Of a DNA stretch of 32,000 nucleotides, positions 4,342-22,923 are shown in pieces. Each line of letters starts with the position of its first letter. Position 1 is the first letter of the stretch. The position numbers and the translations under genes are program-made. The notes under the pieces are model-generated. The model ran no database searches, was not told the origin of the DNA, and saw nothing but the letters and a program-made list of their open reading frames with translations. The DNA lies in the NCBI RefSeq assembly GCF_003945235.1, contig NZ_RSDW01000001.1, positions 1,410,001-1,442,000 of the forward strand, read 5' to 3'. The stretch is from Edaphobacter aggregans (GTDB taxonomy: Bacteria; Acidobacteriota; Terriglobia; Terriglobales; Acidobacteriaceae).

Positions 4342-4643
4342 GCGACTACTCTGACACGATTCGCTTGCTTTGTATATATCGCGCGGAGCCGCACCGTACA
4401 TAACAACAGAACAAAAATCTTGCCGGACAAAATACGTTGCACTGCAGTTATATCCGTATCCACTTCAAAGGAACCCGCTTACCTTCATCTACGCAAATAC
4501 AATACCCTCCCATCATAAGCCGTTAAAACTATACATTCACTAATCAAAACAAAATATTAACCCCACTCAAATAGAATTCATCTTGAGCAAACAAACCACG
4601 AGAAGCAACCTCCTCTTATCATCACCCTTCCACGGAGCCTTGA

Positions 4644-7166: not shown

Positions 7167-7251
7167 CGCAGCGCAAACCAGAGAAAACAAATACACATAC
7201 CCCCTGAGACCCTTGACACCTCTGATAAACTAAATCTAATGAAGCAAAGAG

Positions 7252-7283
7252 AAGCCCGGCGCAAACCGGGCTTTTCCATTTTC
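7252..7283 (+). terminator. Rho-independent terminator after the GH95 gene (possibly bidirectional)
   Basis: Perfect 8-bp stem AAGCCCGG (7252-7259) / CCGGGCTT (7266-7273) with loop CGCAAA, followed by TTCCATTTTCTG. Confidence 0.6.
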
Positions 7284-7372
7284 TGCAAAGTCAAAGGAGG
7301 AAGTCCAGACCTAAGTCATTTATTTTTAGGACTTTGAGGCGTCGTGTAAGGGGAGGGATTCATCCGACAGAA

Positions 7373-7669
7373 TCAAAGTGGATCTGGCCAAACTGTGATC
7401 CGTGCAGAAAGCGATTCCAAAAGATGCTTCGTATATAAGCCGGTCGCTACAAACTTTGCTCCATCTCTGATCATCATCAAAAGAACCTGCTCGCCATCTT
7501 TGTCGATAGAAGTAACCTCATTGAGATCGACAACACAACTCTGAGATGCGGAGGAATGTCGATTCGCTCGCCAGTTTGTGATCAGCTCATCGATGGATGA
7601 TCCTGTCAGCCGGCCTTGAAGAACCCAACGTTGCTCGGATGTCGTCTCGGTAACCGTGATTCGTAGCAT
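7373..7669 (-). CDS. Small STAS-domain-like protein (anti-sigma-antagonist fold)
   Basis: The ORF runs 7373-7687 and its first codon is TTG. The first ATG, at 7669, has AAGGAA 8 nt upstream. The sequence MLRITVTETTSEQRWVLQGRLTGSSIDELITNW...CVVDLNEVTSIDKDGEQVLLMM follows the STAS pattern (L-G-x-L ... VxDLsxVxxiDxxG). Confidence 0.55.
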   Translation of the reverse strand: MLRITVTETTSEQRWVLQGRLTGSSIDELITNWRANRHSSASQSCVVDLNEVTSIDKDGEQVLLMMIRDGAKFVATGLYTKHLLESLSARITVWPDPL

Positions 7670-7777
7670 GTTGCCTGTTCCTTGCAATCCGACATGTTGA
7701 TGTATCTCCTAGGGACAGAGCCTATTTCCTCTCTTCCTTTCCGTCTCAAGGATCACGTCTGCGATTATCTAGTGGCG

Positions 7778-7793
7778 TGCAATCGACATGCCT
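7778..7793 (-). promoter_or_regulatory. Sigma-54 (-24/-12) promoter candidate facing the STAS gene
   Basis: The minus strand reads AGGCATGTCGATTGCA against consensus TGGCACG-N4-TTGCW. GG and GC have the exact GG-N10-GC spacing. It lies about 100 nt upstream of ATG 7669. Confidence 0.55.
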
Positions 7794-7885
7794 AACGTGA
7801 AGCCATTTTCTCGGTGGCTAACTTTTGAAAAAAACGTAGAGCTTGATGAAATCCGTAGGGACACGTTCGCAAAGATGCTTATAGA

Positions 7886-7910
7886 TTGGCAGTGTGCCAA
7901 ACCGTTGGCA
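7886..7910. promoter_or_regulatory. Candidate enhancer (UAS) palindrome for the sigma-54 activator
   Basis: TTGGCAGTGTGCCAA (7886-7900) is a perfect 6+6 inverted repeat with a 3-nt spacer. An extra TTGGCA half-site lies at 7905-7910. The site is about 100 nt upstream of the minus-strand -24 element. Confidence 0.35.
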
Positions 7911-7918
7911 TCAAGCAA

Positions 7919-10006
7919 CTAGGATTTCTGCGGGCGGGAGATGCCGAGCTTTTGCATTCGAAATTGGAGCGTTGGACGCTTCATTCCAAGTTTCGCAGCT
8001 GCTCCGTTTGGTCCGGCGAAGACCCAGTTCGTCTGTTCGAGAACTGACAGAATGTGTCTCCGTTCAATTTCTTCTAGGGTCGCGGCTCCGTTTGTGTGGC
8101 CGTTTGCGTCGGAAGCTTTCGATCTGAGCTCATCTGAGGACACCTTCAGTACAGGACCTTTTGAGAGGATCACTGCTCGCTCGATAACATTTTGCAATTC
8201 ACGAATGTTTCCCGGCCACGGGTAACGAGCCAGTGCGTTCATTGTCTCTGCGGAGATCGTGTCGATGTTCTTAGTCATATTGCGTGCAAAGTGCTGCGCA
8301 AAATGCCTCACAAGGAATGGAATATCCTCTTTCCTCTCTCTGAGAGGAGGGACACAGATTGGAAAAACATTTAACCGGTAAAACAGATCCGAGCGGAACT
8401 TCTGCTCCTCCACCATCGCACCAAGATCTCGATTTGTGGCCGCAATAAGTCGCGCATCCGTGCGAAGCGTGCGCGAACTCCCTAAGCGTTCAAACTCGCG
8501 TTCCTGTAGAACGCGCAGAAGCTTCGGCTGCAGCTCAAGAGGAATCTCACTGATTTCATCAAGAAAGATGGTTCCTTGAGAGGCCAACTCGAAACGCCCG
8601 ATTCTCTGCGCGATGGCTCCAGTAAATGCCCCTTTCTCGTGGCCAAACAACTCGCTCTCCAACAATCCAGTAGGAATTGCCGCGCAGTTCAGTTTGACAA
8701 AGGGAGATTTTCGCCGTCGGCTAAGGTTATGAACGGCACGAGCAATCAGTTCTTTTCCACTACCGGTCTCTCCTTGAATCAGGACGGTCGAATTTGTCGG
8801 AGCAACAGCTTCTACCTGGCGTAACACCTGGCGAAGCGCTGTGCTGTTCCCGATGATCTCCTCAAAGTTTAATTCGTTACGGATCTCATCTTCGAGATAG
8901 AGATTCTCCTGTTTGAGCTGGTCTGAGAGCTCGGTAATCCGGCGGTAGGCAAATGCATTGTCGATGGCAATCGCAACCTGTCCGGCTATTTGTGACAGAA
9001 ATTCAATATCTGGACTAGTAAAGGCATTCTTTTCCAGCCTCATCAAACAAAGTACGCCGAGGTTGCTATTGCATCGAATCAAAGGGAGCATGCAGATTGT
9101 CTCTACGCCATCTCCGGAAATGGCCCAGTCGGCAAAATCGGATCCGTTCAGCTCTTCAATGTCACCGACCCATGGTTTTCCAGTCCGAAAGACTTGCCCG
9201 GCGAGTGAACCGTCGAGCGGTTTTGACATGTCCTGATGCAAGACTCCTTTGCCATCTGGAAAATCGAGCGCATAAAGTTGAAGTTGTCTGTTCGCGGCAT
9301 CGGGCAAAATTAGCGCCACGCCGTCCAAACGCATGGTTTTGCGAATACCAGGAGAGACGGACCGGAGAACTTCTCGCAGCTCAAGGTTCGAGACAACACT
9401 GTTGTTTAGGTCGAGAATGAGCTGCAGCTTGTTACGCTCACTCTCTAACTGGTCTCGCACAACTTCTGAATGGGCAAAATTTAGGCGGTCGTCTATTGCC
9501 AGAGCAACGTAATCGGCAATTAAAGACAGAAGATCGATCTCGCTCTTGGGGAAGGCATCTCGAGACTCTCTTGCAAAACAAAGAACTCCAAGTCTACGGA
9601 GCGCAGTATTGAGTGGAAGCACACAGAGGGATTGGTCCCCACGTTTACGGAAGAACCGGACGACCTCATCGAGCTTAGGCTCCTCGTCAAGCGATGAAAC
9701 AACGAGAGGCAATTGCGTAGAGATGATCTGAGAGAGTTCATCTTGCCATGGTTCCATCGAGGATTCTTGACCGATTGCAAGCCCCTCTCCATCAACTACA
9801 TACCTTGAAAGAATACTTTCCTTCGAAAAAATCAAGGCAGCCGTATGGGAGACGACAAGATTGGAAAGTTCGAACGGCAAGGCACGCAACAACTGCTCGG
9901 GATCGGAATGTGAGCCCAGACTGCGGGCAAAGCACACAAGTTCCTTGATCTGTTCAGACCGCAAGCCGATGTCGGCTGAGGGAATGCGCTGGGAATGCGA
10001 CCTCAT
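7919..10006 (-). CDS. Sigma-54-dependent transcriptional activator (bEBP) with an N-terminal tandem GAF-like sensor region, an AAA+ core and a Fis-type HTH
   Basis: 695-aa ORF. It has Walker A GETGSGKE, the sigma-54 contact loop EKGAFTGA, the blocks [14 protein letters not shown] and [17 protein letters not shown], and the C-terminal [23 protein letters not shown]. About 380 N-terminal residues contain two GAF-like repeats (LCVLPL...LGVLCF and CMLPL...LGVLCL). No receiver domain is present. Confidence 0.92.
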
Positions 10007-10069
10007 ATTCGATTAAAACAATGTCCGTCCTCCACAGATGACTTATAGATGCTGAAGTGACCTGTCTGG

Positions 10070-10106
10070 CTGCCAAATGCTTGGCAGAGAGTCAGTGGGC
10101 TGGCAG
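10070..10106. promoter_or_regulatory. Candidate enhancer (UAS) palindrome upstream of the operon promoter
   Basis: CTGCCAAATGCTTGGCAG (10070-10087) is a perfect 7+7 inverted repeat with a 4-nt spacer. A further CTGGCAG lies at 10100-10106. The half-site is the same as at 7886-7910. The site is about 65 nt upstream of the -24 GG. Confidence 0.35.
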
Positions 10107-10141
10107 ATGAGGGACATATTTTGCGCGGGTGGCAACAAAGC

Positions 10142-10157
10142 AGGCACAAATCTTGCT
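10142..10157 (+). promoter_or_regulatory. Sigma-54 (-24/-12) promoter candidate for the radical-SAM operon
   Basis: AGGCACAAATCTTGCT against consensus TGGCACG-N4-TTGCW. GGCAC and TTGC are both intact with GG-N10-GC spacing. An AT-rich stretch follows. It lies 145 nt upstream of ATG 10301 and is divergent from the bEBP gene. Confidence 0.6.
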
Positions 10158-10300
10158 TTTATATGAGTAATTTATAAAACCTCTGAAGAACAGCATTTTG
10201 TGGCCAGCAAGTTGCAATATGGCTGCACTATCAGGACCGATAATTCGTCCTTGAGAATCGCGGAAATCAGTGTATTTCAACCTGTTCCAAGGGGGCCCGG

Positions 10301-11587
10301 ATGCATCTGGAGCAGCATACCGAACATCAGCCGAACTTTAGGCTTGACGTCCCGCTGCACGATTTACTCACCAAATCCACGGCAACCCAGCCGGGATTGC
10401 ACTCTAGCGGACCACCTCAAAAATTTCCCGACCCTGTTTTCCCGCAGCATCCCGAACTGATCGTGCCGATCGCTCCGACCGATGGGTGGGTTCCACCTGA
10501 AAAACGCACGTGGACCCCGGGGCAGATATATCACACGATGCAAGGCTGGCTGTTCCCTTACATTCGCTCCAGGGTCACAGCGGGAGATTTTCATCCACTT
10601 ATCGCGTATCTCTTCACTGAATTCAAGTGCAATCTCGATTGTCACTACTGCTGGGCCTTCGACAACAAAGTCAAAGGAATGACTGAGGATACGGCAAAGC
10701 GATCCATCGATTGGCTCCATGGCACAGGCTGCCGCGTTCTGGCCTATATGGGCGGTGAGCCCCTGCTGCGCCCGGATCTCATTCATCGAATTACCTACTA
10801 CGCCGCAAAGAAGAACTTCTGGATCTACCTGCCAACCAACGCGCGGCTATTGCATACCGATGTGATCGACAAGCTCGCTGATGCGGGAATCTCCACTTTC
10901 AACATTGCTGTTGATGCCGTCGATCTGAAGCCTGGTCTTCCCAAAGCGCTGGCGCCGATTCGTGAGCAGTTCGACTATCTGATCCGTAAGCAGTACGGGT
11001 ATGGCTTCTCGGTCTTCCTTAACATCAACATCTGCCGCAACAACTTGGATGATGTGCGACAGCTTACCGAGATAGCTCACGACAATGGAATCGCAACCGA
11101 CTATCACATCAACGAGTCTCCATTGCTCGAGCAGGATGAACACTTCAAACACGCGGACAACAATGTCACCTACATCACCAAGGATGACTGGCCAGCCGTA
11201 GAGGAGACTATTCAATGGCTGACCGAGAAGCAGGACTCCGGCTACAAAATGGTGAATTCGAACACTCGACTATGGCAGATGGTCGACTTTATGAAAGGCA
11301 ATCATTTCCCCTGGAACTGCCGAGCTGGACAAAACTCGATGATCATTCGTGTTGATGGAACGCTGGCCCCCTGTTTTCCGATGTACACGGCTAGCTATGA
11401 CTGGGGCGTAGTAGGGAGCCATAAATTCGACACGAAACAACTTGATCACCAAAAAGAAACTTGCCAAACTCACTGTTTTTCTACGCTCAATCACATACTC
11501 GGCTGGTGCTACAACGACCAGCGCGTTATTAAATATTTCTTCAAGCAGCTTGCACATGGTTTCCAGGGGATGAATGGGCAACTGTAA
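10301..11587 (+). CDS. Radical SAM enzyme with a C-terminal twitch/partial-SPASM Cys domain
   Basis: 428-aa ORF. The CX3CX2C motif CNLDCHYC falls at residues 110/114/117 (nt 10628-10651). GGEPLL is present. C340-x12-G-x4-C358 matches the first half of the SPASM/twitch signature, followed by C388-x3-C392-x10-C403. AAGGGGG lies 5 nt before ATG 10301. An alternative start is M80. Confidence 0.85.
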   Translation: MHLEQHTEHQPNFRLDVPLHDLLTKSTATQPGLHSSGPPQKFPDPVFPQHPELIVPIAPTDGWVPPEKRTWTPGQIYHTMQGWLFPYIRSRVTAGDFHPLIAYLFTEFKCNLDCHYCWAFDNKVKGMTEDTAKRSIDWLHGTGCRVLAYMGGEPLLRPDLIHRITYYAAKKNFWIYLPTNARLLHTDVIDKLADAGISTFNIAVDAVDLKPGLPKALAPIREQFDYLIRKQYGYGFSVFLNINICRNNLDDVRQLTEIAHDNGIATDYHINESPLLEQDEHFKHADNNVTYITKDDWPAVEETIQWLTEKQDSGYKMVNSNTRLWQMVDFMKGNHFPWNCRAGQNSMIIRVDGTLAPCFPMYTASYDWGVVGSHKFDTKQLDHQKETCQTHCFSTLNHILGWCYNDQRVIKYFFKQLAHGFQGMNGQL

Positions 11588-11646
11588 AGCCCCGCCATTT
11601 TGAATACTCAAGCCGATTAGACCCTAAAGCAATTAGGCATAAGGAG

Positions 11647-13440
11647 ATGCAAATGCCAGTAACCGAAGAGATCGTTCAGAAAGACTTCGAAGTAGAGATT
11701 CAGGCTCGTATCGACGCTGAGCGGGCGCGCCTTCGCGCTGAGGCTGGACTAGCCCGTATGCGTGAGTTCAAGAAGCCTGTTGAGCGGACGTTCACAGCGG
11801 CTGAGCGTGACTACGTGACGATTCTCTTTGGCGGTCTGACCTGGAAGCACGAAGAGATGATAAAGGCTGTCTTCCACGGCAGCGGCTACCGTTGCGAAAA
11901 CATTCCCACACCGATTGTGGATGACTTCCAGGCCGGAAAAGAGTTCGGAAACAATGGCCAGTGCAATCCGACCTACTTTACGGTTGGCAACCTGGTGCGC
12001 TACCTCCAGAAGCTAGAACAACAGGGTGAGACACGCCAGCAGATCATCGACAACTATGTCTTCTTCACCGCAGGATCCTGTGGACCGTGCCGTTTCGGCA
12101 TGTATGAAGCTGAATATCGCTTTGCGCTGAAAAACGCGGGCTTCGATGGCTTCCGAGTTTTGCTATTCCAGCAGACAGATGGCATCAAGGCTGCCAGCGG
12201 AGAACCGGGTCTGAAATTTTCTGTCGACTTCGGTATGGGCATGCTTAACGCACTCAATCTTGGCGATGTCATTAATGAGCTTGTATACCAGGTGCGTCCC
12301 TTCGAAGTTAATAAAGGCGAGACGGATCGCGTCATACAAGAGTCTGTAAAGACGTTGACCGATACGTTGCGAGACAGGAAGCGATGGCACATCATGGATG
12401 CGGCTCCTTCTTGGGCGAAGCCATATCTCGAGAAGCACGAGAAGCTCGAATCCATTGGCTGCACCCTTGGGAAGATCGGCAACAACCTATACGGCAAAGA
12501 ATACGTAGATGCGTTGCATGCTTGTCGCGACAGCATCAACTCAATTGAAGTCGACCGCTTCCGTGTGAAGCCGGTCATTAAAATCACCGGTGAGTTCTGG
12601 GCGCAAACGACTGAGGGTGACGGCAACTTCAATATGTTTGCCTTCCTCGAAAAAGAAGGGGCACAGGTGCTGGTCGAACCAATCGCGACATGGATCGCCT
12701 ACATGATGTTCGTTGCCAAAGAGGGCGCCAAAGCGCGAGCGGATGCTGAAGCTCCTTATCGCGACCCCAAGTGGTATGAAATTAAAAAACGCCTCACCAA
12801 TGATCTAAAGATATTTAAGAAGACCGGTGGCTTGAGCGCAGGTAGCGTTATGTGGACCTATTTCTATCACCGCACCATCAAGCATATGGGTGATACCGCG
12901 CATCACCTAATCCCACAGAAAGAACTGTCGCGGCTGGCGCATCCCTTCTACCATCAACTCGCTCGCGGTGGAGAGGGCTATATGGAAGTGGGTAAGAATG
13001 TCTATTACACCGTGAACCACCTCTGTCACATGGTGTTGGCACTGAAGCCGTTTGGTTGCATGCCATCGACACAATCAGACGGTGTCCAGTCGCGCGTCGT
13101 CAATAAGTTCAAGGACATGATCTTCCTGCCGATTGAGACTTCAGGAGAGGGTGAAGTGAACGCGCATAGCCGAGTTCAGATGGCGCTTGCAGAAGCAAAG
13201 GCGAAGGCGCGTGCTGAATTCGATGGAGTGCTACAGCAAACTGGGAGGTCCCTCGAGGAGTTGCGAGAGTATGTCGACGAGCATCCGCACCTTAAGCGCG
13301 CGCTTTATAAGGTTCCACACCGGCAGGGCATCGCTGGTACTGCGGCTCAATTCGCCTGGCATGTAAGCGATCTAATGAAAAAAGATAGCGCGTATCGTCG
13401 GAGGATTCGAACAGCTGTCCCTCTCCAGCGAGTTGCGTAA
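11647..13440 (+). CDS. BCR/HAD-superfamily 'activase-related' Fe-S subunit (PlsR-like / DUF2229-related)
   Basis: 597-aa ORF. Conserved-looking Cys motifs are NGQC(106)NPTYF, AGSC(145)GPC(148)RFGMYE and LKPFGCMPS. AAGGAG abuts ATG 11647, so ATG 11653 (6-nt spacing) may be the true start. The gene is translationally close to its neighbours. The family call is from motif memory, not from a search. Confidence 0.65.
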   Translation: MQMPVTEEIVQKDFEVEIQARIDAERARLRAEAGLARMREFKKPVERTFTAAERDYVTILFGGLTWKHEEMIKAVFHGSGYRCENIPTPIVDDFQAGKEFGNNGQCNPTYFTVGNLVRYLQKLEQQGETRQQIIDNYVFFTAGSCGPCRFGMYEAEYRFALKNAGFDGFRVLLFQQTDGIKAASGEPGLKFSVDFGMGMLNALNLGDVINELVYQVRPFEVNKGETDRVIQESVKTLTDTLRDRKRWHIMDAAPSWAKPYLEKHEKLESIGCTLGKIGNNLYGKEYVDALHACRDSINSIEVDRFRVKPVIKITGEFWAQTTEGDGNFNMFAFLEKEGAQVLVEPIATWIAYMMFVAKEGAKARADAEAPYRDPKWYEIKKRLTNDLKIFKKTGGLSAGSVMWTYFYHRTIKHMGDTAHHLIPQKELSRLAHPFYHQLARGGEGYMEVGKNVYYTVNHLCHMVLALKPFGCMPSTQSDGVQSRVVNKFKDMIFLPIETSGEGEVNAHSRVQMALAEAKAKARAEFDGVLQQTGRSLEELREYVDEHPHLKRALYKVPHRQGIAGTAAQFAWHVSDLMKKDSAYRRRIRTAVPLQRVA

Positions 13441-13484
13441 GGCGTCCAGCATTCTTCCAGCATCGAGGCTTCGTCATTGAGGAG

Positions 13485-16400
13485 ATGTCAATGCAACAAT
13501 TCCTGGCTGGTCTGGACGTGGGTTCTACGACCGTCAAAGCGATTGTGGTCGACGCAGCGACGGACAAGACCATATGGCAGGACTACCAGCGTCACGAGAC
13601 GCGTCAGCCAGAGAAGGTCCTTGAGTTCCTGCGCCGGATGGAAGAGGACACGGGAATTGCACCAGAAAACACGCGAATATTCGTCACAGGCTCGGGGGGC
13701 GGAACTATCGCAGAAATGATTGGTGCGAAGTTTGTCCAGGAGGTACATGCCGTCTCGCTCGCGGTCGAAAAACTTCATCCAGAGGTTTACTCCGTTATCG
13801 AACTAGGTGGACAGGATGCAAAGATCATCGTGTTCAAAGACGATGAAGAGACTGGTCGCAAGAAGAAGATCCCATCGATGAATGACAAGTGCGCCGGAGG
13901 CACTGGGGCCGTCATCGACAAGATCAATGCCAAGCTCAAGATTCCCGCTGCAGAGCTCGCAAATCAGGGATATCACAACGTCAAACTACACAAGGTTGCC
14001 GGCAAGTGCGGCGTCTTTGCCGAGACCGACATCAACGGACTACAGAAGACCGGCACACCGTCTGACGAGTTGATGGCCTCTCTCTTTGAAGCCATCGTGC
14101 TACAGAATCTCAGCGTACTGACACGCGGACATACCCTGCGGCCCCATGTTCTTCTCCTTGGCGGTCCGAACGGATTTATCCGTGGCATGCGCGAAGCATG
14201 GCAAGCCAACATTCCGCGTATGTGGAAGGAACGCAAGGTTGAAATTCCGGAAGGCACAAATCCGGAGGAGTTGATTAAGGTCCCCGAGAACGCGCAATAC
14301 TTCGCGGCACTGGGATCGGTCGAATTTGGCAAAGAGGAAGAGCCCGCAATAGGTCGTTACCTCGGCACCGAAAAGCTTATCTACTACATTGACTACGGAC
14401 GCGCAGAAGAAAAGGCAACCTCTGGTGGCAAAGGTTTGGTTGCGGAAGACGCTGAGCTAGTCGCCTTCAAGTCGGCTTACGCGAAGAAGAAATTTAACGT
14501 CGCAGAGTTTTATCCGGGGCAAACGATCACTGGTTTCATCGGAATTGACGCAGGATCGACTTCGACCAAGGCTGTTGTACTCGACAAAGAAGGCGAGATT
14601 CTGTGCAAGACCTACCAGCTTTCGAACGGCAATCCGATTCAGGATACGATCGAAGTTTTTGAGAAGCTTCGAGCGCAGATCGAGACGAAAGGCGCGACGC
14701 TCGAAGTACTCGGTGTCGCCACTACCGGTTATGCCAAAGACATTCTCAAGGATGTTCTGAACGCCGACGTTGCTCTTGTGGAGACAGTCGCACACACGGA
14801 GTCGGCGCTAAAGTTCTACGACGATCCCCATGTCATCGTGGACGTTGGCGGCCAGGACATCAAACTCATCGTTCTGAAAGATGGCCGTGTAAAGGACTTC
14901 AAGCTGAACACACAATGCTCCGCCGGGAACGGATACTTCTTGCAATCGACTGCTGAGGGCTTCGGCATAAAGGTCGACGAGTTTGCCGACATTGCCTTCG
15001 CCGCCAAATCTATGCCATCGTTCGGCTATGGATGCGCCGTGTTCATGCAATCCGACATCGTCAACTTCCAGCGGCAAGGTTGGCGATCAGAAGAGATACT
15101 CGCAGGTCTCGCCGATGTTCTTCCTAAGAATGTCTTCCTCTACGTCGCGAGCATTCCTAATCTCGCAGCTCTGGGCACACGTTTTGTCCTCCAGGGTGGC
15201 ACACAGAATAATCTTGCTGTAGTCAAAGCGGAGGTGGACTTCATTAAATCCAGCTTCCGCGCGAACGGAAGAGAGCCGGAGATTATCGTTCACGAGCACT
15301 GCGGCGAGTCCGGCGCAATCGGCGCCGCGCAGGAGGCCCTCCGACTCTGGCGCAATGGTCGTCAGACAACGTTTATTGGTCTTGAAGCCGTTGCAAACAT
15401 CCGTTATCACACAACACGCAATGAAGATACCCGCTGCTACTTTTGCAAGAACAATTGCCTGCGCACCTTTATCGACGTCGATGTTACGGGTGAAAAGAGC
15501 CACGAGCACAAGCACTCCCATGCTGTCGCAGAAGACCGCGCGGCCACGGTGGAAGAGATAGCAGAAGTCGTATCTACCCTGCCGTCACTTGAGCAGATCC
15601 AGGCAAATCTTCCGCCAGTTGAATCGCATGGTTCTTGCAGCAGTGGTGGGCACAGTTCTCCCTCAGTGTTCAAAGCTAAGGTAGAACCGCTAGTCCAAAT
15701 TCAATTGACTCCCGGATCGAACAAGGTCGTCGAGCTGCCGAAACCAACAGAGTTTCAGCCACGCAAGACCAAGGTTCCCTTGAAAGTAGGAGAACAACGG
15801 CTCATTATCGCCACGTGCGAAAAGGGTGCCGTGGAAGATCTCGACGAGATGAAGGGCATCAAGGCCGATATCGACAAAATCAAAGCCATCAATCCGAACT
15901 ACGTTGATATCGCTGCGCGCGATGTCTTCCGCCATCGTGAGGTAGAGATCGTCTCCGACTCCATCCCATCTACCAAGGGGTTGTTCTTTTCGAAGACAAC
16001 AAAGGAACGTGCCGCTCTCATGGAGCAGCGCAAGGAATACCGCGTAGGAATTCCGCGCCTCCTGAACACGTACACTTACGGGCCGTTCTTCAATGCGTAC
16101 TTCGCCAGCCTCGGGCTAAAGTCTGAAAATATCATCTACTCCGATTACACGACGCCCGAACTTTATCGTGCAGGTGCAAGCCGCGGAGCGATCGACCCCT
16201 GCTATCCCTCAAAAATCGGCATCGCGCACGTCTACAATCTCCTCGCCACCAAACACACAAAGAAGCCGCTCCATGCGATCTGGTTCCCGATGTATGACGT
16301 ATTGCATACGCATCTCGTAAACCTGACTGGATCGAATGCATGCCCCACAGTCACGGCAACCCCAGAGACGGTCAAAGCTGCCTTCACCAAGGAAAGCGAC

Positions 16401-17195
16401 ATCTTCTCCGAAAACGGCATCGTGTACATGGATCCAATCTTGAATCTCCAAGATGAGAGGATATGTGCTGATCAGATGTTTAGGGCCTGGAGCCCTGTAT
16501 TAGGTCTAAGCCGCGAAGAAAATGAACGTGCAGTCGCCGTTGGATTCAAGTCCTTACATGAATGCGAAGTTGAAATTCGCCGGCAGGCGCGTGAGACCCT
16601 CGATCAACTCGAACGCGAAGACCGCATTGGCATTGTGATGCTGGGCCGCGTCTATCATCACGACCCCGGTCTCAACCACGAGATCATGGAAGAGTTTCAG
16701 AAACTAGGGTATCCAGTCTTTTCCCAAAGCACGTTGCCCCTGGACGAAGATTTGCTTGACCGACTATTTGGGGAGGAGGTTCGCGCTGGACTGATCACCC
16801 ACCCACTGGACATCAGCGATGTGTGGAAGAATCGTTACTCCACCAGCACCAACCATAAGGTATGGGCTGCGAAATTTACGGCGCGCCACCCCAACCTGGT
16901 TGCTCTCGAGGTTTCCAGCTTCAAGTGCGGCCACGATGCTCCTATCTATGGAGTCATCGAAGGCATCATCGAACAATCAGGCACGCCCTATTTCTCATTT
17001 AAGGATCTTGACGAAAACAAGCCCTCAGGCTCCATCCGAATTCGTGTCGAGACGATCGATTATTTCCTGCGCCGTTATCGCGAAGACATCATCAAACGGC
17101 GAAGCCTCGAAACCGATATCGAAACACAATTAGCTGTTTTCGAACAGTCACTTCGCAGTAAACCACGAGGTGAGTTGGCAATGGCAGGTGATTAG
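13485..17195 (+). CDS. Fusion protein: two BcrAD/BadFG-type activase ATPase domains, a Cys motif and a DUF2229-type module (PlsA-like / acyl-CoA dehydratase activase-related)
   Basis: 1236-aa ORF. Two ASKHA-ATPase starts are present: GLDVGSTTVKAIVVD near the N-terminus and GIDAGSTSTKAVVLD near nt 14540. Each is followed by ELGGQD/DVGGQD and by CAGGTG/CSAGNG. Then come C651-x2-C654-x3-C658 (nt 15435-15458) and C778 (ATCEKG). The C-terminal part reads YRVGIPRLLNTYTYGPFFNAYFASLGL...DPCYPSKI...FKCGHDAPIY. GAGGAG Shine-Dalgarno is present. Confidence 0.85.
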   Translation: MSMQQFLAGLDVGSTTVKAIVVDAATDKTIWQDYQRHETRQPEKVLEFLRRMEEDTGIAPENTRIFVTGSGGGTIAEMIGAKFVQEVHAVSLAVEKLHPEVYSVIELGGQDAKIIVFKDDEETGRKKKIPSMNDKCAGGTGAVIDKINAKLKIPAAELANQGYHNVKLHKVAGKCGVFAETDINGLQKTGTPSDELMASLFEAIVLQNLSVLTRGHTLRPHVLLLGGPNGFIRGMREAWQANIPRMWKERKVEIPEGTNPEELIKVPENAQYFAALGSVEFGKEEEPAIGRYLGTEKLIYYIDYGRAEEKATSGGKGLVAEDAELVAFKSAYAKKKFNVAEFYPGQTITGFIGIDAGSTSTKAVVLDKEGEILCKTYQLSNGNPIQDTIEVFEKLRAQIETKGATLEVLGVATTGYAKDILKDVLNADVALVETVAHTESALKFYDDPHVIVDVGGQDIKLIVLKDGRVKDFKLNTQCSAGNGYFLQSTAEGFGIKVDEFADIAFAAKSMPSFGYGCAVFMQSDIVNFQRQGWRSEEILAGLADVLPKNVFLYVASIPNLAALGTRFVLQGGTQNNLAVVKAEVDFIKSSFRANGREPEIIVHEHCGESGAIGAAQEALRLWRNGRQTTFIGLEAVANIRYHTTRNEDTRCYFCKNNCLRTFIDVDVTGEKSHEHKHSHAVAEDRAATVEEIAEVVSTLPSLEQIQANLPPVESHGSCSSGGHSSPSVFKAKVEPLVQIQLTPGSNKVVELPKPTEFQPRKTKVPLKVGEQRLIIATCEKGAVEDLDEMKGIKADIDKIKAINPNYVDIAARDVFRHREVEIVSDSIPSTKGLFFSKTTKERAALMEQRKEYRVGIPRLLNTYTYGPFFNAYFASLGLKSENIIYSDYTTPELYRAGASRGAIDPCYPSKIGIAHVYNLLATKHTKKPLHAIWFPMYDVLHTHLVNLTGSNACPTVTATPETVKAAFTKESDIFSENGIVYMDPILNLQDERICADQMFRAWSPVLGLSREENERAVAVGFKSLHECEVEIRRQARETLDQLEREDRIGIVMLGRVYHHDPGLNHEIMEEFQKLGYPVFSQSTLPLDEDLLDRLFGEEVRAGLITHPLDISDVWKNRYSTSTNHKVWAAKFTARHPNLVALEVSSFKCGHDAPIYGVIEGIIEQSGTPYFSFKDLDENKPSGSIRIRVETIDYFLRRYREDIIKRRSLETDIETQLAVFEQSLRSKPRGELAMAGD

Positions 17196-17272
17196 CATTG
17201 AGATTGACCTGAAATCCACTGTGTAACCCTAAGCAAAGATGTGTCGCAGATCTGCGGAGTCCCAACTCGTTC

Positions 17273-18385
17273 ATGAGTGCATCGTGGAGTTTAATCAATC
17301 GGTTCGTCTTCTCCAACCTTGCTCGTCGACCCATTCGCACTATCCTGAGTGTTCTGGCTATCGCGGTTGAAGTAACGATGATCCTTACCCTGGTCGGCGT
17401 CAGTTACGGGACGCTCGACGGAACAGCTCGTCGAGCTCGCGGTGTCGGAGCGGATATTCTGATCCGTCCACCTGGATCATCGATCATATCGCTCAGTACC
17501 GCTCCAATGAGCGATAAGCTAGTTTCGTTGCTCGCTAGCCGACCCGGAGTCGCAATGGCCATCGGTACGGTCGTTCAGCCTCTTCAAGGTCTCGATACGG
17601 TCACCGGCCTCGACCTCAACCAGTTTTCAAAGATGAGTGGAGGCTTTCACTTTCTGGAAGGCGGCCCTTTTCAAACGGATGACGACATTCTTATCGATGA
17701 ATTCTATGCGCGCGAAAAAAGACTCCACGCGGGCGATAATCTTAACCTGATTGGCCACGATTGGCATGTAGCGGGTGTCTTCGAGTCCGGCAAGCTTACC
17801 CGGATATGCATCAGGCTGCCGGTCCTGCAGCAACTAACCGGAAATCCAAACCACTTAAGCCAGATCTATCTCAAGGTCGACAATCCTGCTCATGTGCAGG
17901 ATGTTGTCGACGAACTCCGCAAGACACTCCCCGGATATCCGGTTTATACGATGGAAGAATTCACGTCTCTTCTGTCGATCAACAGCGTCGGCTTGTTGCG
18001 CAACTTTATTGGCGTTGTAATCGCAATTGCTATTGTTGTGGGATTCATTGTCGTCTCAATGGCGATGTATACCGCTGTTCTTGAGCGCACCCGTGAGATC
18101 GGTATTCTGAGGTCGCTAGGTGCATCCTCATCGTTCATCTTCAGCCTTCTTTTGAAAGAGACACTCCTCCTGGCTCTCGTTGGTACTGGCATAGGCATCG
18201 TGTTTACTTATTTCGCCCAATGGTCGATCGAGCACATTGGACACTCCGGCCTAACGCAGGAGACCGTCTACGCTTGGTGGCCTATAGCAGGTGCGATTGC
18301 CATTACAGGTGCAATACTTGGCACCTTGGCCCCGGCGTTCAAGGCTATCCACCAAGAAGTAACTCAGGCACTTTCCTATGAATAG
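17273..18385 (+). CDS. ABC-transporter permease of the FtsX/MacB/LolE type (MacB-like periplasmic domain plus FtsX domain)
   Basis: 370-aa ORF. It has an N-terminal TM helix (RTILSVLAIAVEVTMILTLVGV), an extracytoplasmic region of about 200 aa, then three TM helices. The block AVLERTREIGILRSLGAS is characteristic of the family. Confidence 0.8.
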   Translation: MSASWSLINRFVFSNLARRPIRTILSVLAIAVEVTMILTLVGVSYGTLDGTARRARGVGADILIRPPGSSIISLSTAPMSDKLVSLLASRPGVAMAIGTVVQPLQGLDTVTGLDLNQFSKMSGGFHFLEGGPFQTDDDILIDEFYAREKRLHAGDNLNLIGHDWHVAGVFESGKLTRICIRLPVLQQLTGNPNHLSQIYLKVDNPAHVQDVVDELRKTLPGYPVYTMEEFTSLLSINSVGLLRNFIGVVIAIAIVVGFIVVSMAMYTAVLERTREIGILRSLGASSSFIFSLLLKETLLLALVGTGIGIVFTYFAQWSIEHIGHSGLTQETVYAWWPIAGAIAITGAILGTLAPAFKAIHQEVTQALSYE

Positions 18386-18709
18386 GAACAATATCCTGGC
18401 AATGAACGTGGTTTGCGACTAATCACAAAGTCATAAAGTTATAGACTTGAGCTCTTCCTCGTACCGCATCGGTGATGCTAGACCCGAACGGGATTCAGAT
18501 TATCCTTCAATTGATCATCTGCGAGGGCTCAACAATCATCCACAGACGCGGATACGGCACGCAACCTCACAGACGACGATATACCTCTACGCAGGTGGTC
18601 TCCGCAGATAAACGGAGTGCAAGTAGGAGGCAGGTAGAGTTGATGATGGAGGATCGAAGCGGCTTGGAAAATTCCATACCGCTGATTTCGGGATTGTCAC
18701 TTGGGTTCG

Positions 18710-18738
18710 CCATAAACCATTTATTTTATTATGGTTTA

Positions 18739-18741
<3 letters not shown>
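18710..18741. terminator. AT-rich perfect hairpin abutting the 3' end of tRNA-Asp
   Basis: CCATAAACCAT (18710-18720) and ATGGTTTATGG (18731-18741) form a perfect 11-bp stem with a 10-nt T/A loop. The right arm overlaps the encoded CCA of tRNA-Asp. No clean U-tract follows. Confidence 0.35.
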
Positions 18742-18816
<75 letters not shown>

Positions 18817-18967
18817 GACATGTCACATAAGAAGAAGCAATCTAGGAGAGTATCTCCATCGCTCTCTTCTAATCTGCTATTGCTTTGGAACCCATCTTAG
18901 GCGATCAAAAAACCTATGGATCCGGTCAGCAACAGTACTGAGTGTATCAGAAGATGCGCCCAACAGA

Positions 18968-20428
18968 CTAGCTCACTTCGAATCTATCTCCGCGCTTAGG
19001 GCACACGACCTCCAGCCCATATCGTTTTTCGATCTCTTCCTTCAGTGCCTCTTGTGCGAGCGGCTCGCCGTGCACCAAAAACACCTTCTTCAACCCCTTC
19101 ACCGCAGGTTCCATCCACGCCAACAACTCACTCTGATCCGCATGACCGCTCAGTTCGCCGATCGAATCGACCTCCGCCCGCAGACGCATTGGCTCGCCAA
19201 AGATGTTCACCTCCGGCAGCCTATCTACAATCTTTCGGCCCAGCGTATTTGCCGCCTGATAGCCAGTAATCAGCACCAGGTTGCGCGGATCTTCGATCCC
19301 ATTCTTCAGATGATGCAGTATCCGTCCGGCCTCGCACATCCCCGACGCTGACATCACCAGAAAAGGTACGCGCAGATCATTCAGAGCCTTACTCTCCTGC
19401 ACCGTACGGGTATAGCGCAATCGTTCCCATCCAAAGGGGTCCGTACCCTTGCTGTAGAACACGCACGCCTCTTTGTCCCAATCCTCCGTATGCTTGCGAA
19501 AGACATCGGTCACAGCAACCGCCAGCGGACTGTCCACAAAAATCGGTATATCCGGAATCTGCTTCTCATCAATAAGCTGATGCAGCAGCAGTACCAGTTG
19601 CTGAGTCCGTTCCACGGCGAACGCCGGAACAATAATGTGGCCACCTCGCCCAATCGTCCGCTTCACCAACCTGGCCAGCTTCTGCTTCACCGGCCCAATC
19701 GGTTGATGCAGCCGATTTCCATACGTGCTCTCCATAATCAGATAATCTGCAACCGGCGCCGCATCCGGATCGCGAATAATCGGCAGGTCTTTGCGCCCTA
19801 CATCACCAGAAAAGAGTAGCCGCGTTGTCTGCCCTTTCTCTACAGCCTCGACCAGGACACAGGTCGAGCCCAGCATATGCCCCGCGTTCGACAGCGACAC
19901 GCTGAACCCCGCGTCTTTCGTCGAACCAGCCAGCAGCTTCGGCTCGTGCATCTGTATCTGCTGCATCTGCCGGCTCACCTGCTCGGCATCCTCTTGCGTA
20001 TAGAGCGGCTGAACCGGTTCAGCACCTTGCGGCAGCTTCAACAAGTTCCTGCGTCCACGCCGCCGATTCATGAAATCCGCATCGCCTTCCTGAATATGGG
20101 CACTATCTTTGAGCATCGGCCCGCATAGATCGATCGTCGAAGCAGTCGCGTAGATCGGCCCCCTATACCCTCGCTTCGCTAGCGACGGCAGATTGCCGCT
20201 ATGGTCAATATGCGCATGCGACAATACCACCGCGTTCAACCCGCCAGTTCCCTGCCCCGCAAGCTGCTCGTCTGGCAAAGCCAGATGCGAATTGATCTCA
20301 ACCGCCTCCTGCCGCCGCCCTTGAAACAGCCCGCAGTCCAGCAGAATATTCTGCCCGGCACACTCGAGATGATGAGACGATCCCGTAACCGTCTGTGCTG
20401 CGCCCCAAAAATGCAATCGAATGCCCAT
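18968..20428 (-). CDS. MBL-fold metallo-hydrolase of the beta-CASP RNA-metabolising family
   Basis: The ORF runs 18968-20653. The family-typical N-terminus MGIRLHFWGAAQTVTGSSHHLE begins at ATG 20428. It has the HxHxDH motif (SHAHIDHSGNLP), a beta-CASP region, and C-terminal LSGHADQSELLAWM. Confidence 0.85.
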   Translation of the reverse strand: MGIRLHFWGAAQTVTGSSHHLECAGQNILLDCGLFQGRRQEAVEINSHLALPDEQLAGQGTGGLNAVVLSHAHIDHSGNLPSLAKRGYRGPIYATASTIDLCGPMLKDSAHIQEGDADFMNRRRGRRNLLKLPQGAEPVQPLYTQEDAEQVSRQMQQIQMHEPKLLAGSTKDAGFSVSLSNAGHMLGSTCVLVEAVEKGQTTRLLFSGDVGRKDLPIIRDPDAAPVADYLIMESTYGNRLHQPIGPVKQKLARLVKRTIGRGGHIIVPAFAVERTQQLVLLLHQLIDEKQIPDIPIFVDSPLAVAVTDVFRKHTEDWDKEACVFYSKGTDPFGWERLRYTRTVQESKALNDLRVPFLVMSASGMCEAGRILHHLKNGIEDPRNLVLITGYQAANTLGRKIVDRLPEVNIFGEPMRLRAEVDSIGELSGHADQSELLAWMEPAVKGLKKVFLVHGEPLAQEALKEEIEKRYGLEVVCPKRGDRFEVS

Positions 20429-20683
20429 CTTCCCTCGGTCCAGCCTTGTGGAGTTGTTTGTGCCGGCTTTGCTGGCTGCTCTGTCGGGCCCCCCAGCTAG
20501 CCTCGTGTAAGACACAAAGGATGAAGATATCTCTCCACACACATGTTGACAATACCGGGCCTGAAATACGCCGATGCTGATGTTCGCAGTCAATCTTCTC
20601 TTTTGTCGGAGCGCCTCGCCCCTTCCGCATTGCATCCTGTGATCCACTCCCATACACTTAGATTGGTTCGTAGGAATCGGAGC

Positions 20684-20760
<77 letters not shown>

Positions 20761-20817
20761 TTTCACCGTCTCCCAACCCAAACGCCGCACATCGCATATT
20801 CCGCCGCGCCCTTACTC

Positions 20818-21747
20818 ATGGCATCTCGCCTCATCATTAACGCGGACGACTTCGGCCTAACCCCCGGCATTAACCGAGCTATCGCCCAGCTTCATGAGGC
20901 TGGAGCCCTCACTTCAGCCACTCTCATGGCGACCGGGGCCGCATTCGACGACGCCGTATCTATCGCCCGTGCTCACCCCACACTTGGCATCGGCTGCCAT
21001 ATCGTCCTCACCGACGGCATCCCCGTCTCGCCCCCCCAGAGCATCCCCACCCTACTAGGCGCCGATGGCAAGACCTTCCGCCCCTCGCTCCTCGATTTTG
21101 TCCAAGCCCTTCTCCGCGGAATCATCCGCGAAGACGACATCGAGCGCGAGGCTCTGGCTCAGATTCAGAAACTCCAACGCGCCGGTATCGATGTCACCCA
21201 CATCGACACCCACAAACATACCCATCTCTTCCCTGCCGCCTCGCGACCGCTCCTGCATATCGCCCAACGCTGTTCCATCGGAGCCATACGTAACCCCTTC
21301 GAGCCTGCCTTTACGCGGCGGCTTCCCCACGCCCCCCTTAAGCGTCGCCTACAATTCGCCCTCCTCAAGACTCTCCGCCCCAGATTCACCCAGCTTAGCC
21401 AACTTCGCCACGCCCATGTCCTTACTACTGACGGCACTCTCGGCGTCTCAGCCACAGGCAACGTTACTCCAGCCACACTCACCGAGATTCTTAACGCTCT
21501 CCCCTCGGGAGGAACGTACGAGATTGTCTGCCACCCTGGCTACAATGACGCAGACCTCGATCGCGTCCGCACCAGACTACGCTCCCATCGCGAGATCGAG
21601 ATGCAGGCCCTCCTCAGGGCCATCCCCGCCATTCTCATGCAACCGAATCCGCCTGAGCTCATCCATTACGGTAACCTCGGAGCCTTCGATACTCTTCGAG
21701 AGAATGGTCAGTTTAGCCCCAACACCGGCTATGAAAAGGTGCTGTAA
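20818..21747 (+). CDS. YdjC/ChbG/HpnK-family carbohydrate deacetylase
   Basis: The ORF track starts at 20728, inside tRNA-Val. ATG 20818 gives MASRLIINADDFGLTPGINRAIAQLHEAGALTSATLMATG, the canonical YdjC N-terminus. Later blocks are HIDTHKHTH and CHPGY. Confidence 0.85.
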   Translation: MASRLIINADDFGLTPGINRAIAQLHEAGALTSATLMATGAAFDDAVSIARAHPTLGIGCHIVLTDGIPVSPPQSIPTLLGADGKTFRPSLLDFVQALLRGIIREDDIEREALAQIQKLQRAGIDVTHIDTHKHTHLFPAASRPLLHIAQRCSIGAIRNPFEPAFTRRLPHAPLKRRLQFALLKTLRPRFTQLSQLRHAHVLTTDGTLGVSATGNVTPATLTEILNALPSGGTYEIVCHPGYNDADLDRVRTRLRSHREIEMQALLRAIPAILMQPNPPELIHYGNLGAFDTLRENGQFSPNTGYEKVL

Positions 21748-21774: not shown

Positions 21775-22923
21775 ATGAAGATTGGCATCACCTGCTATCC
21801 CACCTACGGCGGCAGCGGAGTCGTCGCTACTGAACTGGGTATCGAACTCGCCGCTCGTGGCCATCAGATCCACTTCATCACGTCATCTCAGCCCTTCCGC
21901 CTCACCGGACGCGAGGCCAACATCCACTTCCATGAGGTCTCCGTCTCCACCTATCCCCTTTTCGAATACCCACCCTACGATCTCGCTCTCGCCACGCGCA
22001 TGGCTGAAGTGGCCGACTTCTACTCGCTCGACCTCCTCCACGTGCACTACGCTATCCCGCATTCCGTCAGTGCCTTGCTTGCCAGCCAGATGCTTGCCAC
22101 TCGCGGTCGCCGTCTCCCGTTCATTACGACCCTTCATGGCACCGATATCACGCTCGTAGGCCTCGATCCCTCCTACCTGCCCATTACTCGCTTCGGCATC
22201 GAACAATCCAACGGGGTCACAGCCATCTCTAGCCATCTTCGCGATCGAACGCGCGAAGCCTTCGATATCAAGTCAGAAATCGAGGTCATCCGAAACTTCG
22301 TCAACTGCGACGTCTATGTGCACAAGCCCGACCTCGTTGCCGCCATGCGCCCCAATTTCGCCAGTGCCAACGAACACCTCTTCGTCCATCTCTCTAACTT
22401 CCGCCCTGTGAAACGAGTCCAGGATGTCATCGAAGTCTTTGCCCGCGTCTCCCGTGTTCTTCCAGCCCGCCTCATGCTAATCGGCGATGGCCCCGACCGC
22501 AGCCTCGCCGAACAACTCGCTCTCCGTCATAACGTACAGGACCGTATCCACTTTCTGGGCAAGCAGGATAACGTCAATGAACTCCTCCCACTGGCTGATC
22601 TCATGATTATGCCTAGCCAGATGGAGTCCTTTGGTTTAGCCGCCCTGGAAGCAATGGCATGTGGCGTTCCTGCAATCGCCACCCGCGTAGGCGGAGTTCC
22701 TGAACTAGTCGATGATCAGATTAACGGCCTCCTGTTTGAGGTGGGTGGCATCGAATCCATGGCCGCCGCGGCCATATCCTTACTCCGGGACCCGTCTCGT
22801 CTGAAGGCTCTTTCCGTCGCCGCGCGCCAGACCGCGCGGGACCGATTCTGCGCCTCCCGCATCATCCCGCTCTACGAGCAGTACTACGAGCGCGTCATCG
22901 CCCGGACAACATCCTCCACATAA
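21775..22923 (+). CDS. bshA: N-acetyl-alpha-D-glucosaminyl L-malate synthase (bacillithiol biosynthesis glycosyltransferase BshA), GT4
   Basis: 382-aa ORF. The N-terminus MKIGITCYPTYGGSGVVATELGIELAARGHQIHFITSSQPFRL closely parallels my memory of Bacillus BshA (KIGITCYP..GGSG..ATELG..LA..GHEIHFITS..PFRL). The GT4 E-x7-E motif ESFGLAALE is present. Confidence 0.8.
   Translation: MKIGITCYPTYGGSGVVATELGIELAARGHQIHFITSSQPFRLTGREANIHFHEVSVSTYPLFEYPPYDLALATRMAEVADFYSLDLLHVHYAIPHSVSALLASQMLATRGRRLPFITTLHGTDITLVGLDPSYLPITRFGIEQSNGVTAISSHLRDRTREAFDIKSEIEVIRNFVNCDVYVHKPDLVAAMRPNFASANEHLFVHLSNFRPVKRVQDVIEVFARVSRVLPARLMLIGDGPDRSLAEQLALRHNVQDRIHFLGKQDNVNELLPLADLMIMPSQMESFGLAALEAMACGVPAIATRVGGVPELVDDQINGLLFEVGGIESMAAAAISLLRDPSRLKALSVAARQTARDRFCASRIIPLYEQYYERVIARTTSST

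Follow-up and report, generated by a model that had tools for sequence, protein, structure and literature searches.

A candidate sigma-54-controlled operon in Edaphobacter aggregans encoding a PlsA/Ger-like reductase pair and a linked radical-SAM enzyme

A 32-kb stretch of the Edaphobacter aggregans genome (contig NZ_RSDW01000001.1, positions 1,410,001 to 1,442,000; hereafter the window, with positions counted from its first letter) carries a cluster of four genes on the forward strand, downstream of a putative sigma-54 promoter and divergent from a gene for a sigma-54 enhancer-binding protein (Table 1). The four are referred to below as gene 1 (encoding a radical S-adenosylmethionine, or radical-SAM, enzyme), gene 2 (a protein of 597 amino acids, aa), gene 3 (a 1236-aa protein) and gene 4 (an FtsX-type permease). 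They are separated by gaps of 59, 44 and 77 nucleotides (nt), and no intrinsic terminator-like site was predicted on the forward strand within the cluster. An initial annotation, drawn up from the letters alone, had proposed four genes of these sizes and spacings and had quoted a set of motifs for genes 1 to 3; the coordinates agreed with this layout, and every motif could be read from the translations. In profile searches Radical_SAM, BcrAD_BadFG (twice), DUF2229, MacB_PCD and FtsX were all matched as anticipated, whereas the SPASM match of gene 1 stayed below threshold and gene 2 matched nothing in Pfam or NCBIfam. An acidobacterial host had been raised only as a condition; gene 3 proved 100% identical over 1234 aa to an E. 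aggregans protein listed at NCBI as a 'putative CoA-substrate-specific enzyme activase', for which NCBI places the start at 13491.

Table 1 Genes and control elements of the cluster, by position in the window
Feature	Position	Strand	Basis
Radical-SAM enzyme, 428 aa (gene 1)	10301-11587	+	Open reading frame and Pfam
Putative PlsR-like second catalytic subunit, 597 aa (gene 2)	11647-13440	+	Open reading frame, predicted fold, linkage
PlsA/Ger-like subunit, 1236 aa (gene 3)	13485-17195	+	Open reading frame and Pfam
Orphan MacB/FtsX-type permease, 370 aa (gene 4)	17273-18385	+	Open reading frame and Pfam
GAF-GAF sigma-54 enhancer-binding protein, 695 aa	7919-10006	-	Pfam and NCBIfam
Predicted sigma-54 (-24/-12) promoter aGGCACaaatcTTGCt	10142-10157	+	Motif and conservation across orthologous loci
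Palindrome TGCCAA-N4-TTGGCA, candidate activator site	10071-10086		Sequence and recurrence in related loci

The BcrAD_BadFG family (PF01869) was recognized by Pfam in two stretches of gene 3 (241 bits), together with DUF2229 (PF09989, 152 bits), and a linker in the protein is variable. Eleven cysteines of gene 3 are invariant and fall into four groups, with C136/C175 and C478/C517 in the two ATPase modules, C651/C654/C658/C778, which includes the motif C651-xx-C654-xxx-C658, and C906/C953/C1148 in the DUF2229 region. HgdC-type activators and 2-hydroxyacyl-CoA dehydratases provide the basis for reading such groups as iron-sulfur clusters, and by analogy the pattern, taken together with the three invariant cysteines of gene 2, points to one inter-domain activator cluster, one relay cluster and a pair of catalytic clusters with three cysteines each. 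The only sequence matches of gene 3 in the PDB were to activators (1hux, 4eht and 9gai). Gene linkage was counted across 76 non-redundant related loci centred on gene 2, and in every locus long enough to hold both genes, gene 2 lies directly 5' of gene 3. In distant lineages, with gene 2 at about 50% identity, the coding sequences share 4 nt or are separated by 2 nt, and fusions are seen in both orders: one protein (P0278) runs from a gene-2-like domain through two ATPase modules to DUF2229, and another (P0305) from two ATPase modules through DUF2229 to a gene-2-like domain. By these comparisons genes 2 and 3 appear to encode a single enzyme. The description given initially for the pair, with two BcrAD/BadFG modules, a CxxCxxxC motif, a DUF2229-type module and a separate 597-aa subunit, was confirmed by Pfam and by the motifs.

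Two distant gene 2/3 pairs (L087:9766-15231 and L090:1885-5786) are each followed by a 93-aa open reading frame of identical length. In L087 this reading frame is followed in turn by genes for a PlsC-type acyltransferase and Lgt, which is the sole direct contextual hint of a glycerolipid role.

Sequence and profile searches with gene 2 against Pfam, NCBIfam and the PDB returned no match. The protein contains the motifs GQCNP (residues 104-108) and SCGPCRFG (residues 144-151), and three of its cysteines are invariant (C106, C148 and C471). For an AlphaFold2 model with a predicted local distance difference test (pLDDT) score of 84, the best Foldseek matches were the double-cubane cluster protein DCCP (7yyl/6eno), BzdNO (8s02) and MbdON (9g87), with probabilities of 0.97-1.0 but TM-scores of just 0.3-0.44 and identities of 10-12%. 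The model places gene 2 in the fold class of benzoyl-CoA reductase, 2-hydroxyacyl-CoA dehydratase (BCR/HAD) and DCCP. These best structural matches, DCCP/DCCP-R (6ENO, 7YYL) and BzdNO/MbdON, are ATP-driven low-potential reductases that work with HgdC-type ATPases. Gene 2 differs from the double-cubane protein in having three invariant cysteines where DCCP has six, and the substrates of DCCP, BzdNO and MbdON are soluble. Clustered at 50% identity, the gene-2 family is small, at 1871 clusters for E <= 1e-3 or 351 for E <= 1e-30; it nonetheless occurs in at least 595 GTDB species genomes and is widespread in soil Acidobacteriota. The nearest other cultured relatives among the matches listed were Tunturiibacter lichenicola and T. 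psychrotolerans, in which gene 2 is 92% identical. One 1271-aa metagenomic protein (P0275) has a gene-2-like domain fused to a GltD-like module (Fer4_20, Pyr_redox_2 and a 4Fe-4S ferredoxin), a fusion that suggests NAD(P)H- or ferredoxin-linked electron input to the gene-2-like subunit in some organisms.

Ger and PlsA are the sole characterized enzymes with two ATPase modules and DUF2229. In Clostridium perfringens PlsA/PlsR (CPE1195/CPE1194; Jackson et al. 2021), an oxygen-sensitive member of the BCR/HAD superfamily, the gene of R type likewise lies upstream of that of A type. The A protein is made up of two BcrAD/BadFG modules and DUF2229, and R supplies a second HAD-like reductase/dehydratase module. 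The E. aggregans partner of R type is larger (597 versus 420 aa), its A subunit exceeds PlsA by about 230 aa and contains the variable linker, and the locus adds a radical-SAM gene and sigma-54 control. By analogy, the product expected in an acidobacterium would be a saturated alkyl ether rather than the plasmalogen of PlsA/PlsR. A saturated alkyl ether is likewise expected of Ger, the glycerol ester reductase (Thermotoga maritima Tmari_0479 and Desulfatibacillum alkenivorans SHJ90043; Sahonero-Canavesi et al. 2022), which also has two ATPase modules and DUF2229 as its core and whose activity was seen anaerobically only. Ger, however, is a single fused polypeptide with short HGD-D and DUF2229 segments in its tail, whereas E. 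aggregans encodes the second module separately, in the gene upstream. A Ger homologue of E. aggregans was reported by the same authors, and activity has been demonstrated for the T. maritima and D. alkenivorans enzymes (PMC13159169).

The closest published parallel by size, order and phylum is found in Solibacter usitatus, where Halamka et al. (2022) proposed Acid_0921/0922 for ether-bond formation (PMC10087280). In their comparison C. perfringens PlsA (1004 aa) and Acid_0922 (1188 aa) are 30.2% identical at 96% coverage (e-126), and PlsR (420 aa) and the neighbouring Acid_0921 (589 aa) are 20.9% identical (e-14; PMC10087280 Table S6). The sizes and gene order of the S. usitatus genes match the window pair and also more distant Terriglobia loci, and size, order and taxon together point to probable orthology. 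Halamka et al. described neither a linked radical-SAM gene nor regulation for these genes. The PlsA/PlsR architecture read initially from the sequence is borne out by both the published Ger homologue of E. aggregans and the S. usitatus pair. Judged by sequence, the pair is best classed within the PlsA/PlsR-Ger kind, as an acidobacterial subfamily whose second subunit is much larger than PlsR and lacks the HGD-D signature. The presence of a Ger homologue tracks ether lipids in the small sample of the literature. One report describes a producer of brGDGTs (branched glycerol dialkyl glycerol tetraethers) that has both Tes and Ger, and a strain with Tes only that makes tetraesters only (PMC13023045). 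In E. aggregans itself, production of brGDGT-Ia is relayed as triggered at 1% O2 in three reports (PMC13274423, PMC10087280, PMC8941075).

The predicted promoter, aGGCACaaatcTTGCt, is the only exact GGCAC-N5-TTGC in the window. Since 0.24 such matches are expected by chance and 22 of 100 shuffled sequences contained at least one, a single match is weak evidence. The promoter was scored at 54 loci by an 11-position match score with shuffled controls; scores of at least 9/11 were obtained at 22 loci, against about 1.5 expected from the shuffles, and the activator gene is present in 19 of those 22. Most of the 29 activator-bearing loci have a TGGCAC-N5-TTGCW-like element 66-145 nt 5' of where the radical-SAM gene starts. 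The element is mostly missing from activator-free loci, although three of these nevertheless reach 9/11. With GG at -24, GC at -12, the spacing between them and its conservation across orthologous loci, the promoter is convincing as a prediction. About 56 nt upstream of the -24 element is the palindrome, a candidate upstream site to which the activator may bind. It recurs identically or as a near variant at some 10 further loci with the activator, placed roughly 90-130 nt upstream of the -24/-12 element there. A riboswitch or structured leader was also considered and rejected, with no Rfam match and a leader fold no better than shuffles (z = -1.65).

The activator gene was found divergently upstream in 30 of the 76 related loci. 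Its Pfam domains are two GAF domains, Sigma54_activat (PF00158, 243 bits), an AAA lid and a Fis-type helix-turn-helix (HTH_8), and the GAFTGA loop that contacts sigma-54 is present. Conservation is 0.87 for the helix-turn-helix and 0.88 for the AAA+ domain, and 0.45 for the first GAF domain. The domain order GAF-GAF, AAA+ (GAFTGA) and helix-turn-helix, the divergent placement of the gene and the palindrome upstream of a -24/-12 promoter are common to activators of the FhlA/NifA class; the E. aggregans protein differs from that class in scoring under the FhlA equivalog cut-off (601 versus 830 bits) and in lacking a NifA-type cysteine cluster. The near-consensus promoter and divergent GAF-GAF activator of the initial annotation are thus present, and conserved with one another. 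Of the strict enhancer-dependent control it proposed, the conservation supports a narrower form: such control is well supported, by sequence, within the Edaphobacter/Tunturiibacter lineage, and is specific to that lineage rather than general.

Gene 1 matched Radical_SAM (PF04055) at 61.7 bits against a cut-off of 29.5, and SPASM (PF13186) below threshold, at 17.2 against 21.5 bits. It contains the motifs C110-x3-C114-x2-C117 and C340-x12-G353-x4-C358, and C110, C114, C117, C245, C340, C358, C388, C392 and C403 are invariant. The later cysteines are spaced C-x3-C-x10-C rather than in the canonical CX2CX5CX3C pattern, in a region where the structure model is poor. The protein has a conserved N-terminal extension of about 100 aa, and mean column identity in its family is 75% across the sample. 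The best Foldseek matches were BlsE, SuiB, viperin, MoaA and PqqE; because the model is of low confidence (pLDDT 60), these indicate the subgroup only. Sequence and fold matches alike are generic for the SPASM/twitch subgroup, CteB included, and gene 1 is predicted to be a radical-SAM enzyme of this type. A homologue is linked to genes 2 and 3 in 53 of the 76 gene-2-centred loci. In the group with 78-92% identity (Acidobacteriaceae) it lies 5' of gene 2 in nearly all sufficiently long loci, and some deeper Terriglobia also have a radical-SAM gene before gene 2. Three gene orders were found, namely radical-SAM-gene 2-gene 3, gene 2-gene 3-radical-SAM (L058 and L064) and gene 2-radical-SAM-gene 3 (L153), and adjacency retained through all three argues for a functional tie of the radical-SAM enzyme with genes 2 and 3. 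A reading as anti-phage defence was rejected, the only matches in its direction being generic ones to the viperin core and the LolE transmembrane region.

Individual loci place radical-SAM genes in other company. In L064 (15616-18699) the order gene 2-gene 3-radical-SAM is followed by a 199-aa protein that has no Pfam match and an HTTM-domain membrane protein. In a deeper Terriglobia locus (L060:15364-17483) the genes that come after gene 3, on the same strand, encode a class I SAM methyltransferase and a distinct, shorter radical-SAM protein of 364 aa, neighbours with a possible bearing on the additional methylations found in brGDGTs. On a 282-kb contig, a radical-SAM gene with 85% identity to gene 1 stands alone, without genes 2 and 3, near a resolvase and an HTH_17 gene (L001:10001-11287), and may be a relocated or mobile copy. 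In L093 (639-9329) an unlinked homologue with 64% identity has genes for a GAF-GAF sigma-54 activator, a STAS protein and an OEP/MFP/MFS efflux set upstream of it and a URO-D family gene after it, and it faces a phospholipase-B-like gene.

Gene 4 matched FtsX (PF02687, 60.8 bits) and MacB_PCD (PF12704, 41.6 bits), with weak family matches to LolCE and to the ADOP orphan-permease family. The domains assigned to it initially are confirmed, but its membership of a conserved module is not supported: a permease lies downstream of gene 3 in just 8 of the 76 loci, and a scan of the 19 larger open reading frames of the window for an ABC_tran ATPase domain found none. Gene 4 is an accessory, lineage-specific neighbour and not a core part. 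As no terminator is predicted in the 77-nt gap, its co-transcription with the other genes is possible.

On balance we favour, with modest confidence, the proposal that the cluster is a sigma-54-driven operon for a PlsA/Ger-like ester reductase that makes the ethers of brGDGTs, with an extra step carried out by the radical-SAM enzyme. What we infer within it, namely the cluster stoichiometry, the lipid substrate, the reaction, the role of the radical-SAM enzyme, the signal of the activator and the link to low oxygen, would fit together as follows. The divergently encoded GAF-GAF activator would switch on the sigma-54 promoter, leading to expression of the radical-SAM, plsR-like and plsA/ger-like genes and possibly the ftsX-like gene; a connection between this activator and oxygen would be drawn from the physiology of the organism. 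In gene 3 the two BcrAD-type ATPase modules would share an inter-domain [4Fe-4S] cluster, from which ATP would drive low-potential electrons through a further four-cysteine cluster to a HAD-like heterodimer formed by the DUF2229 part of gene 3 and by gene 2, each with a three-cysteine [4Fe-4S] cluster. By analogy with PlsA/PlsR and Ger, which is also what suggests a lipid function for genes 2 and 3, the ester carbonyl of membrane glycerolipids would be reduced and dehydrated to alk-1-enyl or alkyl ethers. Esters of iso-C15 or iso-diabolic acid would be likely substrates, the reaction being an etherification step towards brGDGT. The radical-SAM enzyme would perform an additional radical step on the same lipid pool, as an add-on confined to Terriglobia; we rate an accessory step of this kind as the most likely role for it, ahead of carbon-carbon coupling or cofactor maturation.

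Several results weigh against this proposal. HGD-D (PF06050), which recognizes the second module in Enterococcus faecalis PlsA and in T. maritima Ger, matched neither gene 2 nor its homologues (Pfam, E <= 0.01), and by the published S. usitatus comparison the family is only about 21% identical to PlsR. When the profile of the gene-2 family was compared with that of DUF2229 in gene 3, to see whether the two are paralogous halves, the probability was 0.5%, a value that is uninformative rather than negative given the shallow gene-3 alignment. The activator sequence contains no recognizable O2-sensing motif. In a second sample, drawn from metagenome loci around a radical-SAM protein with about 64% identity to gene 1, the radical-SAM gene was linked to genes 2 and 3 in 21 of the 61 interpretable loci and unlinked in 40; none was found beside the distant gene 2/3 pairs inspected. 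The tie of the radical-SAM enzyme to genes 2 and 3 is not obligatory. Consistent partners of the unlinked radical-SAM genes were not found in this sample, a few loci having an efflux trio and a sigma-54 activator. Finally, no lipid-synthesis genes flank the cluster among the scanned open reading frames of the window. The oxygen-sensitive lipid-modification module first suggested for this locus stands as regards a PlsR/PlsA-type pair in an ether-lipid-producing acidobacterium, while the lipid as its substrate is still argued from analogy.

The likeness to PlsA and Ger could be architectural only, with the reductase acting to reduce or dehydrate a soluble compound, be it a small molecule or a CoA thioester, and the radical-SAM enzyme belonging to the same route; we regard this as unlikely. 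The solved folds nearest to gene 2 are indeed DCCP and BzdNO/MbdON and not a lipid enzyme, but the PDB holds no PlsA or Ger structure, and a fold search was hence unable to find one. Activators resembling FhlA typically answer to small metabolites, the GltD-like fusion joins one gene-2 homologue to an NAD(P)H/Fe-S reductase, and the window is without lipid genes; yet no CoA ligase, transferase or beta-oxidation gene was found nearby in the approximately 160 loci inspected. The combination of a protein that has two ATPase modules and DUF2229 with a neighbouring second subunit, moreover, is a build characterized only in PlsA/PlsR and Ger, and the correlation of Ger homologues with ether lipids, small though the published sample is, also speaks for the lipid ester reductase.

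A different role for gene 1 within a lipid pathway would be that of the missing acidobacterial tail-to-tail coupler, an iso-diabolic-acid or tetraester synthase like Mss or Tes, with the three genes together turning diesters into membrane-spanning ethers. Tes (GDGT-MAS) and Mss, radical-SAM enzymes too, have auxiliary clusters and membrane lipids as substrates, and belong to the same biosynthetic theme. In favour of this role, under stringent criteria no Mss homologue was reported in Acidobacteria, and Tes homologues were reported in only 3 of 14 producers of iso-diabolic acid. The six extra invariant cysteines of gene 1 would suffice for auxiliary clusters, the carbon-carbon cross-linkers SuiB and PqqE are among its nearest folds, and its linkage to genes 2 and 3 is tight in Acidobacteriaceae. 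Gene 1, however, is about 100 aa shorter than Tes and scored 34.5 bits with the Tes model (NF045702, cut-off 450), and its PDB profile match to GDGT-MAS (7tol, 32 bits) covers the cluster-binding core only. E. aggregans has a Tes homologue of its own (32% identity, e-61; PMC8941075), and Tes homologues are credited with the tetraesters of Koribacter in a 2025 study relayed in PMC13023045, and for these two reasons a tail-coupling role for gene 1 is less likely. Iso-diabolic acid is also made constitutively in air, whereas gene 1 lies behind a predicted enhancer-dependent promoter. We consider this coupling role improbable; of the initial description of gene 1 as a radical-SAM/twitch enzyme, the CX3CX2C and CX12GX4C motifs are present and a lipid coupler of the Tes type is not supported. 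Least probable of all is a role in maturation, with gene 1 building or repairing an unusual Fe-S cofactor for the gene 2/3 reductase instead of acting on the substrate, for although co-transcription, similar conservation in Acidobacteriaceae (82-95% for the radical-SAM protein, 78-92% for gene 2 and 78-91% for gene 3) and weaker fold matches to NifB and HydE would agree with it, no gene of this kind accompanies the gene 2/3 pairs of other lineages, members of the radical-SAM family are often found by themselves at a distance from genes 2 and 3, and PlsAR and Ger function in E. coli without a dedicated maturase.

Outside the cluster, G+C content is 0.55-0.64 over a GH95 gene (4001-7000), 0.49-0.54 over the activator gene and operon (7001-19000) and 0.54-0.60 downstream; the dip over the cluster could mean that its history was different. 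A beta-CASP metallo-beta-lactamase nuclease of 561 aa (18968-20653, reverse strand) lies between tRNA-Asp (18739-18815, reverse strand) and tRNA-Val (20684-20760, forward strand); it scored 332 bits with the NCBIfam model for type VII CRISPR 'Cas14' (cut-off 800) and 245 bits with that for archaeal aCPSF1. A YdjC/HpnK-like deacetylase (20728-21747, forward strand; 186 bits with the HpnK model, cut-off 233), whose listed start overlaps tRNA-Val, so that the true start must be further downstream, is followed by a GT4 glycosyltransferase (21775-22923, forward strand). The AsmA/DUF748 family functions in envelope lipid transport. One of its genes lies a few kb downstream of the cluster (25355-27544, forward strand), and another, likewise a few kb downstream, was seen in an unrelated Terriglobia locus (L002:19593-21308, reverse strand); this recurrence could be a coincidence.

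That an ether-lipid-producing acidobacterium has an enzyme of PlsA/Ger type is already in the literature, as a homology match. Three further elements appear to be unreported in the literature searched: the anatomy of the operon in the organism used to show O2-triggered brGDGT synthesis; the 597-aa protein, outside all Pfam families, as a putative second catalytic subunit; and the linked radical-SAM enzyme together with the sigma-54/GAF switch and its candidate operator. A published BLAST match to Ger thereby becomes a defined genetic unit with a second subunit, a linked radical-SAM gene, a regulator, a promoter and a candidate operator. Each of these parts is open to deletion, expression or reporter use, which makes both a switch responding to O2 limitation and the sufficiency of one reductase directly testable. 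The gene-2 family could, in addition, be a sharper marker of ether-lipid potential in soil metagenomes than generic ATPase domains. As terrestrial palaeothermometers and pH proxies, the brGDGTs are among those in widest use. A bolder version of the proposal would make the radical-SAM protein a new lipid-modifying enzyme that the PlsR/PlsA-type reductase needs for converting iso-diabolic-acid esters to brGDGT (acting, for example, at the sn-2 position, on a vinyl-ether intermediate or on a C-C bond), and would make the GAF-GAF activator the low-oxygen switch of brGDGT synthesis. Although we hold this version to be rather unlikely, a required radical-SAM enzyme and a low-oxygen activator would, if it is true, be the missing enzymatic and regulatory basis of a palaeoclimate proxy.

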